NCBI GenBank assembly: GCA_045611705.1
Contig: JAZKXR010000007.1
Location: 248,662-312,661, forward strand
DNA: 64,000 nt
From: Alphaproteobacteria bacterium
Lineage (GTDB): Bacteria; Pseudomonadota; Alphaproteobacteria; CAAHEQ01; UBA3637
Direction: 5' to 3'
The notes under the pieces are model-generated. The model was not told where the DNA came from. It searched no databases and saw nothing but the letters and a program-made list of their open reading frames with translations. Shown here one piece after another: positions 20,281-52,367 of the stretch (within the stretch, counting starts at the first letter, position 1; the number at the start of each line of letters is the position of its first letter). The position numbers and the translations under genes were made by a program.

Positions 20281-20284
20281 AACC

Positions 20285-20313
20285 TTGACTTTTTGGGGTT
20301 GTTCGGTTAGAAC
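20285..20313 (+). promoter_or_regulatory. Orphan copy (R1) of a duplicated sigma70 promoter module (TTGACT-17-TAGAAC)
   Basis: A ~58-bp repeat (20281-20340) nearly identical to the ettA promoter region at 21204-21262. It lies downstream of the fucosyltransferase stop and points into a ~60-nt region that ends at a terminator hairpin. Confidence 0.45.
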
Positions 20314-20319
20314 ACCCCC

Positions 20320-20400
20320 TATTTTTATTTTAAAGAAAAGATAGGAATAACTATCCGTTTTAAAAATAAATAAAAGCCCCAAAGTTGGGGCTTTTATTTT
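20320..20400 (+). ncRNA. Candidate small RNA (~80 nt) driven by the R1 promoter and ended by the 20372-20400 hairpin
   Basis: No ORF. Internal hairpin GATAG-G-AATAA-CTATC, then AAAGCCCCAAAGTTGGGGCTTTTATTTTT terminator. Confidence 0.3.
20372..20400. terminator. Bidirectional terminator hairpin (AAAGCCCC-AAAGTT-GGGGCTTT) flanked by T/A runs
   Basis: Perfect 8-bp stem with U-runs on both strands. Serves the convergent 20400..20885 gene and the R1 transcript. Confidence 0.65.
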
Positions 20401-20885
20401 TAGGAACGGGCTCCTCTTCCTCTTACAGGAGAGGCTGTTTCCATAATAATTTCCTCAGCATCTGTTATATGAACACCTGAGTTACGAGGAATAGAAAATT
20501 CCTTCTTCGGCATTGGTTTACCTTCAAATTTCAAACCCTTTTCACTATGTTCAACCAAAACAACCCCTGGTGCAATAGAATATGGAGTTGCTCGTGGCCC
20601 AATCGTAACTGAATTATCACCGGTTTGATGTTCACAAACACTTCTACCTGTATGCCTGTTTTTTATATAATCCAAAACATAGTCTTTATTAACAGAGGTA
20701 ACCCCCAAAGGAAGCATGATAGTTTGTGTCATCATCCCTTCTGATGCATTTACAATGACCGTTCCCAATGTGTTTCTTGTGGTTGCCTGTCCTCTGTGGC
20801 GAATAGCACGTCCACCCAATTGAATGTATAAATCATCGTGTTTAACCGCTGTCATACCATTTTTAAATATTTTATTAAGAGCCAT
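20400..20885 (-). CDS. Hypothetical protein (161 aa)
   Basis: ORF preceded by the conserved leader A ending in RBS AAAGGAAAATAAA-ATG. No recognisable domain. Confidence 0.55.
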   Translation of the reverse strand: MALNKIFKNGMTAVKHDDLYIQLGGRAIRHRGQATTRNTLGTVIVNASEGMMTQTIMLPLGVTSVNKDYVLDYIKNRHTGRSVCEHQTGDNSVTIGPRATPYSIAPGVVLVEHSEKGLKFEGKPMPKKEFSIPRNSGVHITDAEEIIMETASPVRGRGARS

Positions 20886-21120
20886 TTTATTTTCCTTTCA
20901 GTTATAAAAAAACACCGATGGGGTTATCCCATTGGTGGTGGTTATCAAAAATTTTGTAAAATTACAGATTAGCTTTCTTGGCAATACCCCCCCCTCACGC
21001 ACAAAAAATCCTTATTTTTCAAAGGCTTATTTTGTGATATTGAAGTTGTATAGTATTGCATTTTTATCCTTTCACGTACCCACTTTTGCATATTTTTGAG
21101 GGTATGTCAAGTAATTTTTT
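20886..21120 (-). promoter_or_regulatory. Leader/sRNA-like element copy A (~235 nt): TTGACA box, conserved blocks, G8 tract, terminator hairpin plus U7, then RBS
   Basis: About 80% identical to 23601-23860. The 3' 50 nt are identical and include CACCAAUGGG-AUAA-CCCAUCGGUG followed by UUUUUUU, then AAAGGAAAAUAAAAUGGC. Contains a G8 run (C8 on the plus strand near 20984-20991). Confidence 0.55.
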
Positions 21121-21206
21121 ATTTTTTTGTCATCCTGAGTGGGTGTAGCCCCGAAGTATCCCATGGATTCTTCACCTATAAAGGGTTCCAAATGAGATAA
21201 AAGCTC

Positions 21207-21235
21207 TTGACTTTTTGGGGTTGTTCGGTTAGAAT
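21207..21235 (+). promoter_or_regulatory. Sigma70 promoter R2 (TTGACT-17-TAGAAT) for ettA
   Basis: -35 at 21207-21212, 17-nt spacer, -10 TAGAAT at 21230-21235, about 35 nt before ATG 21271. Duplicate of the R1 module. Confidence 0.55.
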
Positions 21236-21270
21236 AACCCCAATTTTTAATTTAAAGAAAGGATTTCAAT

Positions 21271-22947
21271 ATGGCATCATATCAATATATTTATGTAATG
21301 AAAGATTTATGTAAAACTTTCCCCGGCGGAAAAGAAGTTTTAAAGCATATTTGGCTGAGCTTTTTCCCCGGAGCTAAAATCGGCGTTATCGGTCCAAACG
21401 GTGCCGGTAAATCCACATTGATGAAGATTATGGCGGGCTTGGATGACAACTTTACAGGTGAAGCTTGGCCGGCCGAAGGTGTCAAAGTTGGCTATTTACC
21501 CCAAGAACCGCAACTGGATGCTTCCAAAAACGTGATTGAAAACATCATGGACGGCGTTGGCGAAGTCAGGGATTTGATGAAACGTTGGGAAGAAGTCAAC
21601 AATGCCTTTGCCGATCCCGATGCCGATATGGATAAACTGTTGGCCGAACAGGCTGAATTACAGGAAAAAATTGATGCCGTGGGTGGTTGGGATTTTGAAC
21701 GAAACGTAGAAATCGCCATGGATGCTTTGCGTTGTCCGCCGGCCGATGCCGATGTCACAAAGTTATCCGGTGGTGAAAAACGCCGTGTGGCCTTATGTCG
21801 TTTGTTGTTATCCAAACCTGATATGTTATTATTGGATGAACCGACCAACCATTTGGATGCCGAATCCGTTGCTTGGTTGCAGGTCTTTTTAAAGAACTTC
21901 CCAAATACCGTTGTGATGATTACACACGACCGTTATTTCTTGGATAATGTGACAGGGTGGATTTTGGAAATGGATCGTGGCGAAGGTATTCCATACGAAG
22001 GCAACTATACCAAATGGTTGGAAGCCAAAGAAAAACGTTTGCAAATTGAAAAGAATGCCGAAGATAAACGCCAAAAAACATTGAAAGAAGAATTGGAATG
22101 GGTGCGTTCCAGTCCCAAAGCACGCCAAGCAAAATCAAAGGCTCGTATCACGGCATATGAAGAATTATTGAAAAAATCAAATGAAAAAGTCCCCGATATT
22201 GCCCAGATTGTCATTCCGGCCGGTCCACGCTTGGGTGATTTGGTTTTGAAGGCAGAAGGCCTGAGCAAAGCCTTTGGCGACAAATTGTTATTTGAAGATT
22301 TAAGTTTCAACCTGCCCGCCGGTGGTATCGTGGGCGTTATTGGTCCCAATGGTGCCGGTAAAACAACTTTGATGCGTATCATTACAGGTCAAGAAACACC
22401 TGATTCAGGCACTTTCCGTGTGGGTGAAACGGTAAAACTCGGCTATGTGGATCAAAGCCGTGATTCCTTAAACGACAACAATACCGTATGGCAGGAAATT
22501 TCCGATGGTAACGACATGCTGACTTTGGGCAAGCGTGAAGTTTCCAGTCGTGCCTATGTGGCTCAATTTAACTTTAAAGGCGGAGATCAACAAAAGAAAA
22601 TCGGCATGTTGTCCGGTGGTGAACGCAACCGTGTCCACATGGCCAAAATGTTAAAATCAGGTGCCAATGTCTTATTATTGGACGAACCGACAAACGATTT
22701 GGATGTTGATACCTTGCGTGCATTGGAAGAAGCCCTGATGGACTTCCCAGGATGTGCGGTTATTACATCACACGACCGTTGGTTTTTGGACAGATTGGCA
22801 ACACATATTTTGGCCTTTGAAGGCGACAGTAAAGTCGTTTGGTTTGAAGGCAACTATGCCGAATATGAAGCCGATCGCAAACGCCGTTTGGGTATTGATG
22901 CCGATACACCACATCGCATTAAATACAAGCCGATAGAGAGGAAGTAA
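21271..22947 (+). CDS. ettA: ABC-F family ATPase EttA (energy-dependent translational throttle)
   Basis: 558 aa with two ABC domains. The N-terminus ([51 protein letters not shown]) is collinear with EttA/YjjK. Confidence 0.9.
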
Positions 22948-22949
22948 TA

Positions 22950-23600
22950 TTATACGTCCATATCTGGTCCACCTTTTAATTTATTTAAAATCATAGCACG
23001 ATCAATAGGAGATGAGCTACGACGCGGGACAAGCGCTTTTTCAGAATGAAACTTATCTAATATATCTAGTTTTTCTTCTCTTGAATTTGCTTTTAAAATC
23101 GCTTTTAATGTGGATTGACGAGCTTCTTTATCAACTTCTTTTTGATATTTTAATCCTTCCGTTTTACCGCCAGTTTCATCGCTTATACCAACAAAACGGC
23201 CTTTTTTAAAAACTGTGTAACGATCAGAAATATAACCATCTTTTTCATAAAAACGTATAACCCCATCTTTATAACCGTTTTTATAATTCCCCTCTTCTGT
23301 CAGGTATCTAAATACAGTCTTTCCATCAGGGGTTGTTCCTATTTTTACTTGGTGCTTTTGTAATTTATGATTTGTTGCAGCATACCCAAACTCCTGATAT
23401 TTCCCTTGAGCTCTCCCCTTCCCATCTACCATATATTTTCCTGTTAAAGAATTCTCAAAAGAACAATTGGCCCTTTCTGCGTAGCGATGATCATTTGTTA
23501 AAAGAGATGTTCCATCAGACATTGGCACATGATACACAGTAGACACCTTGGACTTTTCAGCCAATTCTTCCTTTTTTCTTAAAAAATCAAAAATTGCCAT
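22950..23600 (-). CDS. Hypothetical protein with MORN-like Gly/Tyr-rich repeats (216 aa)
   Basis: Repeats such as GKYMVDGKGRAQGKYQEFGY and GYKDGVIRFYEKDGYISDRY. Preceded by leader copy B with an identical RBS and start context. Confidence 0.55.
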   Translation of the reverse strand: MAIFDFLRKKEELAEKSKVSTVYHVPMSDGTSLLTNDHRYAERANCSFENSLTGKYMVDGKGRAQGKYQEFGYAATNHKLQKHQVKIGTTPDGKTVFRYLTEEGNYKNGYKDGVIRFYEKDGYISDRYTVFKKGRFVGISDETGGKTEGLKYQKEVDKEARQSTLKAILKANSREEKLDILDKFHSEKALVPRRSSSPIDRAMILNKLKGGPDMDV

Positions 23601-23860
23601 TTTATTTTCCTTTCAGTTATAAAAAAACACCGATGGGATGAACCCATTGGTGATGGTCGTTAAAAATTTTGTTAAGTTATGGATTATTTTTTCTAGGCAA
23701 TACCCCCCCCCACATTCGTAAAAAGTCCTTGTTTTTCAAAGACTTATTTTTATGAGTTGAAGTGGTATAATGTTTCATTTTTATCCTTTTATACCACGAC
23801 TTTTGCATATTTTACGGGGAATGTCAAGAACTTTTTTAAGTAAACTAAAAGCCCCGATTT
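23601..23860 (-). promoter_or_regulatory. Leader/sRNA-like element copy B (~245 nt) with G9 tract and terminator hairpin before the RBS
   Basis: Paralogue of 20886-21120. TTGACA near 23822-23827 (minus strand), a G9 run (C9 on plus near 23703-23711), and the same terminator/RBS 3' end. Confidence 0.55.
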
Positions 23861-23874
23861 TCGGGGCTTTTTAT

Positions 23875-31861: not shown

Positions 31862-32736
31862 CACAAGAAACACTGAATAAACGAATTAAAACAACAACAG
31901 ATTTGCGTGGTATCGTCAGCACCATGAAAATGTTGTCGTCTGTTTCTGTGGGACAATTTGAACGTGCTTTAAAATCATTAAATCAATATACGGAAAACAT
32001 TCAAAATGCCTTTCGTGGACTTTTTGCACAAGAATCTTTTCAATATACCCCCCCTGCTATACGTGCCAAAAACAAAAAGATTTTAGCCGTTCTAATTGGT
32101 TCTGACAATGGATTGGTTGGGCGTTTTAATCGTGATATTTTGGATAATATGAAAAAAACATTAATACCGATGACAGATAAAAATCAAATTAAGATTATCA
32201 GTATCGGCAAAAGATTATCCGCCATCATCCAAACAAACGGATTTCACTTATTGGCCCATTATAACAATTCAAACACGACCAAAGAGGTTTCAGCTTTGGC
32301 TGGTGCCCTTTTAACAAAAATACACCAATTGGTCAGCAAAGAACAATTTGATTGCGTTTGGTTGTTTTATACTACACGTCAAGATACCAAAACATCCATT
32401 ATCGGCGAACAACTTATCCCTTTCCAACAAAATTTATTGGATACGATTAAATCCAAAAAATGGGATGGACGAACTTTACCTTTAATCACGGCAGAACATG
32501 ATGAACTATTTTCCGCCTTGATTCGTGAACACTTTATCGTATCGCTGTCCCATGCATTGACGGCCTCTTTAGCAACCGAACATTATACTCGTATGATCCA
32601 TATGCAGCAAGCCGAAAAAAACATCGATGAAAAGTTGGCTGAATTGGAATTGATCTATCAACAAGAACGCCAAAATCAAATTACAAACGAACTGATTGAC
32701 ATTGTTTCAGGTGCAGAAGCCATCAATAAAAGTTAA
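31858..32736 (+). CDS. atpG: N-type ATPase gamma subunit
   Basis: 292 aa. Conserved gamma N- and C-terminal helices (...ITNELIDIVSGAEA). Overlaps the alpha stop. Confidence 0.85.
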   Translation: MTQETLNKRIKTTTDLRGIVSTMKMLSSVSVGQFERALKSLNQYTENIQNAFRGLFAQESFQYTPPAIRAKNKKILAVLIGSDNGLVGRFNRDILDNMKKTLIPMTDKNQIKIISIGKRLSAIIQTNGFHLLAHYNNSNTTKEVSALAGALLTKIHQLVSKEQFDCVWLFYTTRQDTKTSIIGEQLIPFQQNLLDTIKSKKWDGRTLPLITAEHDELFSALIREHFIVSLSHALTASLATEHYTRMIHMQQAEKNIDEKLAELELIYQQERQNQITNELIDIVSGAEAINKS

Positions 32737-44417: not shown

Positions 44418-45655
44418 AAAAACTGATTTTCCTTTTATGCTTTTTGATCTTTCCGCTTTTAGCACAAGAAGTCAACAACAATACTTTTAATGAAAATAAC
44501 CCAAATCTGATTTATGATAATGTAGCCAAAAAATATTCCGGCGGATCGTTTGTTTATATTCAAGGAATCTCGGACAAGCCACAACCTAAAACATGGATAG
44601 ACAATGCAAAAATATATTTATTCGGCTCTATGGAAATTCCAAAAGAACCTGATGCTCCCCATTTAAGTGATTCCCCTTCCTTTGATAACTCACAAAATGA
44701 AATTGGCATACCTGTCAATACTTTTTTTGGAAAAAACAAAGAACTTAAATATACCCCCCATACCAGTGATTGGGACTTTATTATTCAATTAATGGGGGGG
44801 CAAAATATATATATTAAGGAACATTTGCAGTTTTTAACAACACAAGATGCCCCCATTATTCGTTCATGGCCGATTAATTCTGATCATTTCTTTTTAATCA
44901 GTGCAAAAATTAACGGCCAAAACATTAAACAATTTTTGGAAAAAAGAAGTGATTTAACTTCGTTAAAGCTCCCTTCAATTCCAAAGGGAACACATAAAAT
45001 AATGTTAGAATATGTTTTATCTAACCAAACGAACGCAAATGAAATATCATTACCTTTAACTGCTTCAAATTGGCCGCTGGAAGTGGACAACATGTCTGGT
45101 ATTATTTTAACAGATCAAAGCCAATTAGAAAATACAAAATTCTTATTTGGTCAAAATAAATTGGAAATACCTTCCAATTTTACCATTCAAAAAGACAATA
45201 AAGGCAACACTTTTTTTAAAAACAATCATCTCATACCGGCTTTTGCCCAAATCCAATTAAATGCAAAACATACAAAGCAACAAAGAGAAGACAATGCATT
45301 GGGGAAGCTATCACCATTTGCTTTATTTTTAATCTCCTTTATTGTTATTCTTCTTTATCTAATTCTATCTGGATATGAAATATTCAGCCAATCTTTGTTG
45401 TTTCAATTAAAACGTTTTAAAAGACACAACAATAATATTTTTATCAATTGGATTTACAGAATGGGAGAAATTATTATTGGTATTTTTATTTTATTGATTT
45501 TAACTCTTCTCATCTCCTTATTTTTAAAAATCAACCTGTCTTTGCTTTGGATTTTATTATTGACTATATCTGTTTTGGGTATTATTTTATTAGACATATT
45601 TATTTTCCATCCAAAACAAAAGGAAATTTTTAAAATTCATAAAAAACAACAGTAA
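44414..45655 (+). CDS. Membrane-anchored secreted protein, DUF2207-like architecture
   Basis: 413 aa with a signal peptide, a ~290-aa extracytoplasmic domain, and a C-terminal cluster of 3 or more TM helices. Confidence 0.5.
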   Translation: MKKLIFLLCFLIFPLLAQEVNNNTFNENNPNLIYDNVAKKYSGGSFVYIQGISDKPQPKTWIDNAKIYLFGSMEIPKEPDAPHLSDSPSFDNSQNEIGIPVNTFFGKNKELKYTPHTSDWDFIIQLMGGQNIYIKEHLQFLTTQDAPIIRSWPINSDHFFLISAKINGQNIKQFLEKRSDLTSLKLPSIPKGTHKIMLEYVLSNQTNANEISLPLTASNWPLEVDNMSGIILTDQSQLENTKFLFGQNKLEIPSNFTIQKDNKGNTFFKNNHLIPAFAQIQLNAKHTKQQREDNALGKLSPFALFLISFIVILLYLILSGYEIFSQSLLFQLKRFKRHNNNIFINWIYRMGEIIIGIFILLILTLLISLFLKINLSLLWILLLTISVLGIILLDIFIFHPKQKEIFKIHKKQQ

Positions 45656-51220: not shown

Positions 51221-51245
51221 TTATAGCAAAAAACCGCCCTTACGG
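51221..51245 (-). terminator. Rho-independent terminator after the TIM-barrel gene
   Basis: Minus strand reads GCCGTCCGTAAGGGCGG followed by TTTTTTGC. Confidence 0.6.
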
Positions 51246-51298
51246 ACGGCTTAAAAAAATGGTGAGGGGTATCTTGCCCAACGCGAGCCAACCAAAGA

Positions 51299-52290: not shown

Positions 52291-52318
52291 AATAAAAGAA
52301 AAAGTCGCCTTTTCAGAC
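52291..52318 (-). terminator. Rho-independent terminator after the small membrane-protein gene
   Basis: Minus strand reads GTCGTCTGAAAAGGCGAC followed by TTTTTC. The terminator is immediately preceded by AATACCCCTCACCA. Confidence 0.6.
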
Positions 52319-52367
52319 GACTTAAAAAAATGGTGAGGGGTATTTTGCAAAACGAGGGCTAATATTG

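Follow-up and report, generated by a model that had tools for sequence, protein, structure and literature searches.

A leader element that occurs twice in a 64 kb stretch of DNA from an Alphaproteobacteria bacterium (contig JAZKXR010000007.1 of assembly GCA_045611705.1; 36.7% GC; hereafter the window) was found to belong to a multi-copy family. In this family, a promoter and a small open reading frame (ORF) that runs into a poly-G tract are followed by an intrinsic terminator and, directly behind it, by the ribosome-binding site (RBS) and start codon of a gene, here termed the cargo. The architecture of the element, its conservation, the polymorphism of the run length, and the geometry of the reading frames are directly established, and the anatomy and family of the leaders are stated with high confidence. 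We favor, at somewhat better than even weight, the reading that slipped-strand changes in the G-run decide whether a ribosome crosses the terminator (ON) or halts before reaching it (OFF). With slightly less than even confidence, we further propose that the leader is a portable cassette, which would make any gene behind it heritably switchable through frame-dependent, ribosome-mediated antitermination, and that the cargo is exchanged between the leader and a 3' terminator. All sequences of the family come from metagenome-assembled genomes (MAGs) or metagenome assemblies.

The original prediction described a duplicated element upstream of two unrelated minus-strand genes around ettA, and both copies were found in place. 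Copy A runs from 21110, the start of its -35 hexamer, to 20886 on the minus strand, directly 5' of an ORF of 161 amino acids (aa; 20400..20885), and copy B runs from 23827 to 23601 on the same strand, directly 5' of a 216-aa ORF (22950..23600). The elements are approximately 226 nucleotides (nt) long, and ettA (21271..22947, plus strand; TIGR03719, E = 6e-293) lies between them. The two copies are 81.7% identical over 230 columns of a global alignment, in line with the value of about 80% given earlier, and the 150 nt flanking them on each side are 44-49% identical. The downstream proteins indeed show no mutual similarity (BLASTP E = 1.5). The G8 and G9 tracts were also recovered, at 20994..20987 in copy A and 23711..23703 in copy B, both on the minus strand. 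They are the only G/C runs of at least 8 nt in the window, where 0.17 would be expected by chance, and the combined motif occurred twice in the window compared to 0 of 100 shuffles. Other longish G/C runs in the window are a G7 at 44794-44800 and a C7 at 32048-32054.

The TTGACA box reported for both copies is present as a -35 hexamer (21110..21105 in copy A and 23827..23822 in copy B), and it is followed by a 17-nt spacer ending in TGC, an extended -10, and by the -10 hexamer AAAAGT (21087..21082 and 23804..23799). These promoters (21082..21110 and 23799..23827, minus strand) were missed by a consensus scanner because AAAAGT matches only 3/6 positions. Downstream lies a Shine-Dalgarno (SD) sequence with a small ORF, which spans 20969..21072 in copy A (AAGGA 21072..21067; ATG 21061..21059; TAA 20971..20969 as assembled) and 23677..23788 in copy B (AAGGA 23788..23784; ATG 23778..23776; TAA 23679..23677), again on the minus strand. 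The two ORFs encode MQYYTTSISQNKPLKNKDFLCVRGGYCQES and MKHYTTSTHKNKSLKNKDFLRMWGGVLPRKNNP, respectively, and both are in the OFF frame. The earlier description had noted the G tract but missed that the run lies inside this translated-looking small ORF and that it varies in length.

The placement of a terminator immediately before the RBS proved real, and its structure is conserved in every family member despite differing stems. In copy A, the terminator occupies 20906..20937 on the minus strand (stem 20937..20928/20922..20913; loop ATAAC; U7 at 20912..20906), with a folding free energy (dG) of -12.3 kcal/mol, while that of copy B occupies 23621..23652 on the same strand (stem 23652..23643/23637..23628; loop TTCAT; U7 at 23627..23621; dG -12.2 kcal/mol). 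The hairpin is not perfect as had been claimed, since the stem CACCAATGGG/CCCATCGGTG has one A.C mismatch. The loops are not AUAA but 5 nt long and unlike between the copies. The U7, RBS and ATG are the same in both copies, as stated; the identical stretch before the ATG measures 37 nt, not 50 nt. At the copy A junction (20883..20900, minus strand), the TGA that would end a read-through frame (20900..20898) is followed by the cargo RBS AAGGA (20897..20893) and the cargo ATG (20885..20883). No -35/-10 pair fits between the hairpin and the cargo ATG, and because only approximately 20 nt separate the U-run from the ATG, too few for a promoter, the element must be a leader that works by conditional termination.

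From this arrangement, the following mechanism is proposed. A sigma-70-type promoter would start the transcript, whose first feature would be a short translated ORF that meets a hypermutable poly-G tract about 22 codons in. Replication slippage would gain or lose a G and thereby change the frame past the tract. In the early-stop frames, the ribosome would leave before the hairpin, the terminator would fold, and the cargo would be silent (OFF). In the third frame, the ribosome would cover the hairpin and U-run and stop at or next to the cargo RBS/ATG, and the polymerase would read into the cargo (ON); an ON-state ribosome could possibly also expose the cargo SD. Three parts of this scheme are inferred: ribosomes translate the small ORF, the G-run switches length at high frequency, and a ribosome that crosses the terminator keeps it from acting. 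The underlying physical effect has been shown in E. coli, where the insertion of a single G brought a stop codon from 28 bp to 5 bp of an intrinsic terminator downstream and lowered termination from ~90% to <10%; termination was nearly abolished with the stop a few bp upstream and was maximal beyond ~27 nt (PMC4824070). It was also noted that minimum free energy (MFE) folds of both window copies (20891-20912 and 23606-23627, minus strand) pair the terminator U-tract with the cargo SD (GAAAGGA), with the read-through UGA inside this weak hairpin. A ribosome stopping at that UGA might open the cargo SD, a suggestion from the folding model to which we give low weight.

We then considered how widely the element is distributed. 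A census pattern made from two blocks that all leaders known at that point share (TTGAAAAAYAA, 12-26 nt, G7+TATT) was searched in GTDB representative genomes and returned 31 matches on 29 contigs, of which 24 fell in five uncultured Alphaproteobacteria MAGs (10, 6, 4, 3 and 2 per genome) whose gut samples were of human, pig-like, yak and Hadza origin. The other 7, spread over 6 contigs from unrelated phyla, look like chance, and a scan of the JGI metagenome collection gave 8 matches, all in unrelated sequence and attributable to chance only. Further copies of the family were reached through cargo homologues and called leader ORFs in other assemblies, including metagenome contigs. The genome-wide count describes a multi-copy family with at least 24 copies in five MAGs. 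In 18 of the MAG copies, and without exception in those found by way of cargo homologues, the element stands in the same orientation directly before an RBS and gene, and leader copies thus sit at gene starts instead of forming a dispersed repeat with no link to them. Two of the chance matches, L015 1028-1063 in a Bacteroidota MAG and L045 773-809 on a metagenome contig, represent the same locus with G8 versus G9 in a coding-like region, which may be an unrelated phase-variable gene.

The anatomy of the leaders was shared across the family. The promoter geometry with its 17-nt spacer recurred in 21 distinct copies; the -35 was TTGACA in 19 of them, A2 and T6 of the -10 were present in 16, and the TG of an extended -10 was often present. 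Eighteen of these 21 place the ATG of the small ORF, with its SD, 20-22 nt past the -10; an upstream in-frame ATG from the ORF list falls within the promoter itself. The small ORF extends for about 22 codons up to the G-run, which is followed by TATTGCC. From the run, 70-160 nt lead to the hairpin with its U6-7, a feature present in every leader-type copy, and the cargo RBS/ATG lies approximately 20 nt further. The stem sequences of the terminator differ between subfamilies but always take the form CAC…GTG, with dG from -10 to -21 kcal/mol, and the 5' halves of the leaders are unrelated between subfamilies. In two SGB_3064 copies (L010 4695-4742 and L026 6669-6716), an A8 directly abuts a G10, and the leader ORF carries two slippery tracts.

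What is conserved in place of an aptamer is the promoter, the SD, the ATG, and the small ORF running into the G-run. An ORF with SD and ATG that remains open to the run arose in 0.3-1.8% of dinucleotide shuffles per copy (0.7% for copy A), and it was present in every subfamily. Its frame was free of stops in 12/13 representative copies, with one stop in L019, and the other two frames contained 1-6 stops. The small ORF is thus beyond chance, and it occurs even where the N-terminal halves are unrelated. Substitutions within it were distributed 18/23/21 by codon position, and this flat distribution indicates that the peptide itself is not selected; a reading of the leader ORF as a small-protein gene was rejected on the same test. 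If the small ORF matters, it would be the act of translation that matters, as expected of a regulatory leader ORF.

The G-run lay inside the SD-ATG small ORF in every leader-type copy, and its length ranged from G7 to G14 among copies, differed between paralogues, and was shorter or interrupted in copies that appear locked. Length also varied between alleles of one site. Site A carries G8 in the window and in L038, L048, L049, L050 and L051, and G9 in L005 and L047; site B carries G9 in the window, L038 and L048, and G7 in L006. These same-site alleles sit in otherwise near-identical leaders, within a small sample of assemblies.

Frame geometry past the run followed a common plan. Two frames end within 5-53 nt, which in the window copies is 24-40 nt before the hairpin, and one frame is open past the U-run in 20/22 copies; the remaining 2 have a third frame that terminates inside the loop of the hairpin. 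Where it is open, the long frame reaches its stop no more than ~25 nt from the cargo ATG, with an ATGA overlap in L011 and L022. All three registers relative to TATTGCC are used as the long frame, depending on the subfamily, and those in the subfamilies to which the window copies belong converge on the same reading over the hairpin (…TNGxTPSVFFY…). As assembled, 4 copies were in the long frame (ON) and 16 were not (OFF). In the assembly, the two window copies are OFF and a single slip away from the read-through frame: in copy A (G8), +1 or -2 G gives a read-through frame ending at TGA 20900..20898, and in copy B (G9), -1 or +2 G gives one ending at TGA 23615..23613. Long-frame versions in other assemblies are often annotated by gene callers as proteins of 49-80 aa.

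Copies in which the run has decayed provided a further view of this geometry. Three independent copies with decayed runs (G5, G3AG5, and G5) were all in the read-through frame and had retained the terminator, which fits the switch model. A 161-aa homologue (73% identical) in L002 (1350-1475), also found in L003 and L004, keeps the promoter and RBS and has lost both the G-run and the terminator, with the small ORF cut to 9 codons. This variant looks like a constitutive derivative.

The G-run module was also encountered inside coding sequences. In the Yak and Hadza MAGs, a ~50-nt block (…TTGAAAAAYAA…Gn TATTGCC) lies reversed in the 5' coding region of prepilin-like genes (L014 4099-4138; L024 242-283; L023 1215-1258; L030 142-187; L031 4606-4650; L036 3084-3128), where it appears as a poly-C tract, 10-14 long, at codons 8-12. 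Of the reversed copies, the five that could be evaluated were all assembled out of frame, one slip from the frame with …ESGRSMVEMLG…. These genes show that the lineage uses the G-run module as a frame switch. An inverton test detected no inverted repeats flanking the module in five loci.

The genes behind the leaders are diverse. Cargo A (20400..20885, minus strand) is a 161-aa protein of unknown function with no Pfam or NCBIfam match; its family is rare, with 4 relatives among 5.8 billion proteins and, among 1.84 billion, 11 cluster representatives, and its AlphaFold2 (AF2) model, with a pLDDT of 33, was unusable. Cargo B (22950..23600, minus strand), of 216 aa, combines a MORN-like repeat core with a conserved C-terminal domain of ~70 aa. 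It too lacks a Pfam or NCBIfam match, the SET7/9 MORN domain was hit at E = 4e-5 and MORN_2 in the L007 homologue, and an exact-sequence look-up of the 216-aa protein found none on record. Relatives of both window cargo proteins are very rare, and they carry the same leader in other assemblies. Within the 216-252-aa family (window 22950-23160; L007, L009), a variable MORN-like N-terminal part was noted beside a near-invariant C-terminal ~70 aa (EGLKY.KEVDK.ARQSTLKALLK…KLKGGPDMD). In addition to the 161-aa and the 216-252-aa MORN-like families, the leaders precede an 857-aa autotransporter, prepilin-like proteins (…GRSMVEMLGVLA…), Cys-rich signal-peptide proteins, an LRR protein, and several proteins of unknown function. 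The autotransporter, prepilin-like, Cys-rich secreted and LRR types fit those expected of contingency genes. Short basic tails (RGRGARS, ARGGR, KAGKSR) were also noted at the C-termini of several cargo proteins that are unrelated to each other, and they might represent a shared targeting or secretion signal.

Comparison of syntenic loci pointed to the exchange of cargo at fixed sites. L038 and L048, of the SIG60 lineage, share the gene order of the window (dut, FucT, leader A with its gene, ettA, leader B with its gene), with cargo of 317 or 307 aa instead of 161 aa at site A and of 274 aa instead of 216 aa at site B (swapped regions L038 2456-3531 and 5629-6453). Homology is lost precisely where the cargo begins, at its start codon (window 20883; seen with L038), and resumes where it ends, at the stop codon and 3' terminator (window 20400); the terminator of cassette A (20368..20399, minus strand) is the conserved 3' boundary of the swap. 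L047 encodes an EttA identical to that of the window and yet holds a third cargo at site A (L047 1-190), and L052 holds a fourth (L052 1683-2573). The leader and the 3' terminator thus define expression sites with interchangeable coding sequences, which probably also accounts for the identical 3' end of the window copies. That identity had been read as a sign of constraint on the terminator/RBS end. The identical stretch exists, but the breakpoints of the cargo swaps coincide with the start codon, which makes the cassette junction a place where recombination or gene conversion is a likelier source of the identity than special constraint alone.

Cassette A itself may have been gained by insertion. 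In L009, FucT abuts ettA, with neither the cassette nor a 66-nt repeat between them, and on this basis cassette A looks like an insertion accompanied by a 66-nt duplication. The direct repeats (20284..20349 and 21206..21271, plus strand) are 88% identical, bracket the whole of cassette A and include a hairpin, and the second contains an ettA promoter-like site, TTGACT-17-TAGAAT. On the other side of ettA, a bidirectional terminator (23871..23847) insulates copy B on its upstream side. Elsewhere in the window, a 64-nt repeat (51228-51291 and 52299-52362, plus strand; 81% identical) is made up of a terminator hairpin and, behind it, GGTGAGGGGTATYTTGC, which on the opposite strand resembles a decayed (C4) copy of the G-run block and lies in the 3' regions of two minus-strand genes.

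Several observations weigh against a switch operated by ribosome passage. The small ORF begins only ~150 nt before the terminator, and ribosomes may fail to draw level with RNA polymerase over the first ~100 bp if no pause site holds the polymerase back (PMC4824070). As a speculation, the conserved block TTGAAAAAYAAGGAYTTTTT, together with the hairpin and U-stretch, could be such a site. Homopolymer lengths in MAG and metagenome assemblies are a consensus and may carry errors. The conservation of TTGAAAAAYAA..Gn..TATTGCC at the nucleotide level, in both orientations, is unexplained by the model, and in SGB_3064-type copies one early-stop frame ends ~6 nt before the hairpin, so that the states are maybe not cleanly binary. 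The locked-ON copies came from called ORFs, a source that favors long frames. The open read-through frame is not unusual in itself, as 49-86% of dinucleotide shuffles had at least one frame open to the U-run (15% for the long L009 variant; Fisher combined P = 0.93), and it is for this reason not counted as statistical support.

The conservation of the block as nucleotides, and not as a peptide, is shared ground with an account in which the hypermutable G-run switches through RNA folding, spacing or polymerase pausing instead of translation of the small ORF, as has been proposed for 5' untranslated region repeats elsewhere. The run-length polymorphism and the non-significance of the open frame on its own would suit it, and the MFE folds of some copies bring a portion of the run into pairing with the beginning of the small ORF. 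We nevertheless consider this account unlikely, as the predicted pairings differ between subfamilies with no covariation, and it gives no reason why an SD, an ATG and a frame open as far as the run are conserved, or why the locked copies are in the read-through frame. Marginally less probable is that slippage is not heritable: RNA polymerase or ribosomes would slip on the run and yield a fixed mixture of frames, with the leader as a dimmer for low basal read-through. In other systems, 9-14 identical bases in a row suffice for transcriptional slippage, and with 21/25 copies assembled OFF, the cargo ORFs are nonetheless intact. Against this, the run length differs between alleles of one site, so change at the DNA level does occur, and RNA slippage is in general less of a tendency of G/C than of A/T runs. 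Such slippage is compatible with the frame switch and could coexist with it as an added layer. It also seemed improbable that antitermination depends on a protein, with the conserved block including GGGGGTATTGCC recruiting, or pausing polymerase for, an antiterminator such as a NusG paralogue or RNA-binding protein. This would account for a ~50-nt block conserved as nucleotides across divergent leaders in both orientations and would sit well with the surface or secreted cargo, given that RfaH/LoaP regulons likewise hold surface or secreted factors. A run that varies in length between 5 and 14 is, however, more variation than a recognition site would accept; no candidate factor emerged, and the conserved small ORF would be unexplained.

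Readings of the element as an RNA in its own right fared less well again. A shade more improbable than a dedicated antiterminator is an independent small RNA (sRNA) gene of ~170 nt with a role in trans and incidental read-through, similar to the Bartonella Brt/Trp arrangement. The element has a strong promoter and a terminator, the family is multi-copy with a conserved core, OFF transcripts would accumulate as ~170-nt RNAs, and the Brt RNAs give an alphaproteobacterial precedent (PMC5387305). The leaders nevertheless have no conserved structure besides the terminator, their AT-rich body carries an SD, ATG and ORF, every copy is fused to an RBS and gene that has no separate promoter, and a variable G-run would be odd for a base-pairing sRNA. 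The original prediction mainly favored a ligand-sensing riboswitch or classical amino-acid attenuator, which we now regard as very improbable. The terminator directly before the RBS and folding z-scores of -2.0 and -2.3 speak for it. However, a scan of the elements with Rfam 15 returned nothing at the gathering threshold or at E up to 10, the only weak matches falling on an unrelated terminator near 23850, and RNAalifold on 11 alignable copies found compensatory change in 0/18 pairs. The 5' halves, as described above, are unrelated between subfamilies, and there is no regulatory codon run besides the Gly codons derived from the G-run. No antiterminator complementary to the 5' arm of the terminator, and no pairing of the G-run with the terminator in the manner of pyrG, was convincing by inspection, with no dedicated search run for either. 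A long-range pairing and a hairpin around TTGAAAAAYAA were rejected as candidate structures, as they are not conserved in the SGB_3064 and SIG60 subfamilies.

To our knowledge, repeat-based phase variation requires the repeat to lie in the regulated gene or its promoter, and each gene evolves its own switch. If the proposed frame switch is correct, the leader would carry a modular switch of its own, and a gene new to the genome would become phase-variable on landing behind it; this would fit the precise replacement of cargo beside ettA in strains with identical EttA. It would offer a handle on the host-interaction genes of an uncultured gut lineage and a compact part of ~225 nt for synthetic stochastic switches. 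It would also carry a warning for annotation, in that small ORFs called in one assembly and absent in another can be ON and OFF states of one element. The leader would moreover be a natural counterpart of the engineered result in which one G shifts a stop codon relative to a terminator (PMC4824070), and it would join contingency loci with translation-coupled attenuation.

Among known systems, simple sequence repeat (SSR) contingency loci undergo phase variation by slipped-strand mispairing, with poly-G/C examples in Neisseria, Haemophilus, Campylobacter and Helicobacter. The leaders resemble them in having a long G/C tract in an AT-rich genome, of allele-variable length, within a reading frame and associated with surface or secreted genes. 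The repeat is unexpectedly long, is polymorphic at the same locus and lies within an ORF, and an effect on the cargo would follow from the proposed mechanism; the inverted prepilin-like copies are a textbook case. Unlike in those loci, the repeat in the window lies outside the regulated gene and its promoter, in a separate leader ORF before a terminator, and the module serves many unrelated genes. The search of the literature, whose coverage was incomplete so that a precedent may exist, turned up no account of a leader ORF that bears a repeat and is coupled to an intrinsic terminator.

Other leaders share parts of this design. The family can be likened in outcome, through a leader terminator in the OFF state, to cwpV of Clostridioides difficile, where the switch acts after initiation and site-specific DNA inversion between inverted repeats, by the recombinase RecV, determines whether the leader forms an intrinsic terminator (PMC2784873). 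Unlike cwpV and fimS invertons, the leaders had no flanking inverted repeats in the five loci tested and their variable element is a homopolymer, although the module does occur in both orientations in different genomes. The Brt RNAs of Bartonella, which are 194-203 nt long and present in nine copies, each before a poorly transcribed gene, likewise form a multi-copy set of leaders, ~200 nt long and specific to one alphaproteobacterial lineage, with a terminator at the 3' end and a gene immediately behind. All Brt copies precede XRE-type Trp regulators and have been proposed to be structured RNAs or riboswitches (PMC5387305). The present leaders, distinguished here by their features, differ in their diverse cargo, none with an HTH match, and in their SD-ATG small ORF and variable G-run. 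In pyrBI (pyrL) of E. coli, a leader ORF runs through an intrinsic terminator, and a ribosome close behind the polymerase blocks the hairpin and permits read-through (PMC5021804, PMC4824070). The family shares with pyrBI a promoter-proximal leader ORF, here predicted to be translated, a terminator before the gene, and, in one of three frames, passage across that terminator. The input is what sets them apart: pyrBI senses UTP through polymerase pausing, reversibly within a cell, whereas the input proposed here is a heritable frameshift in the G-run. Unlike the trp and his attenuators, the leaders show no conserved alternative pairing and no regulatory codon cluster besides the G-run Gly codons. 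By analogy with these systems, the leader would appear to work like a contingency locus combined with a pyrBI-type attenuator.

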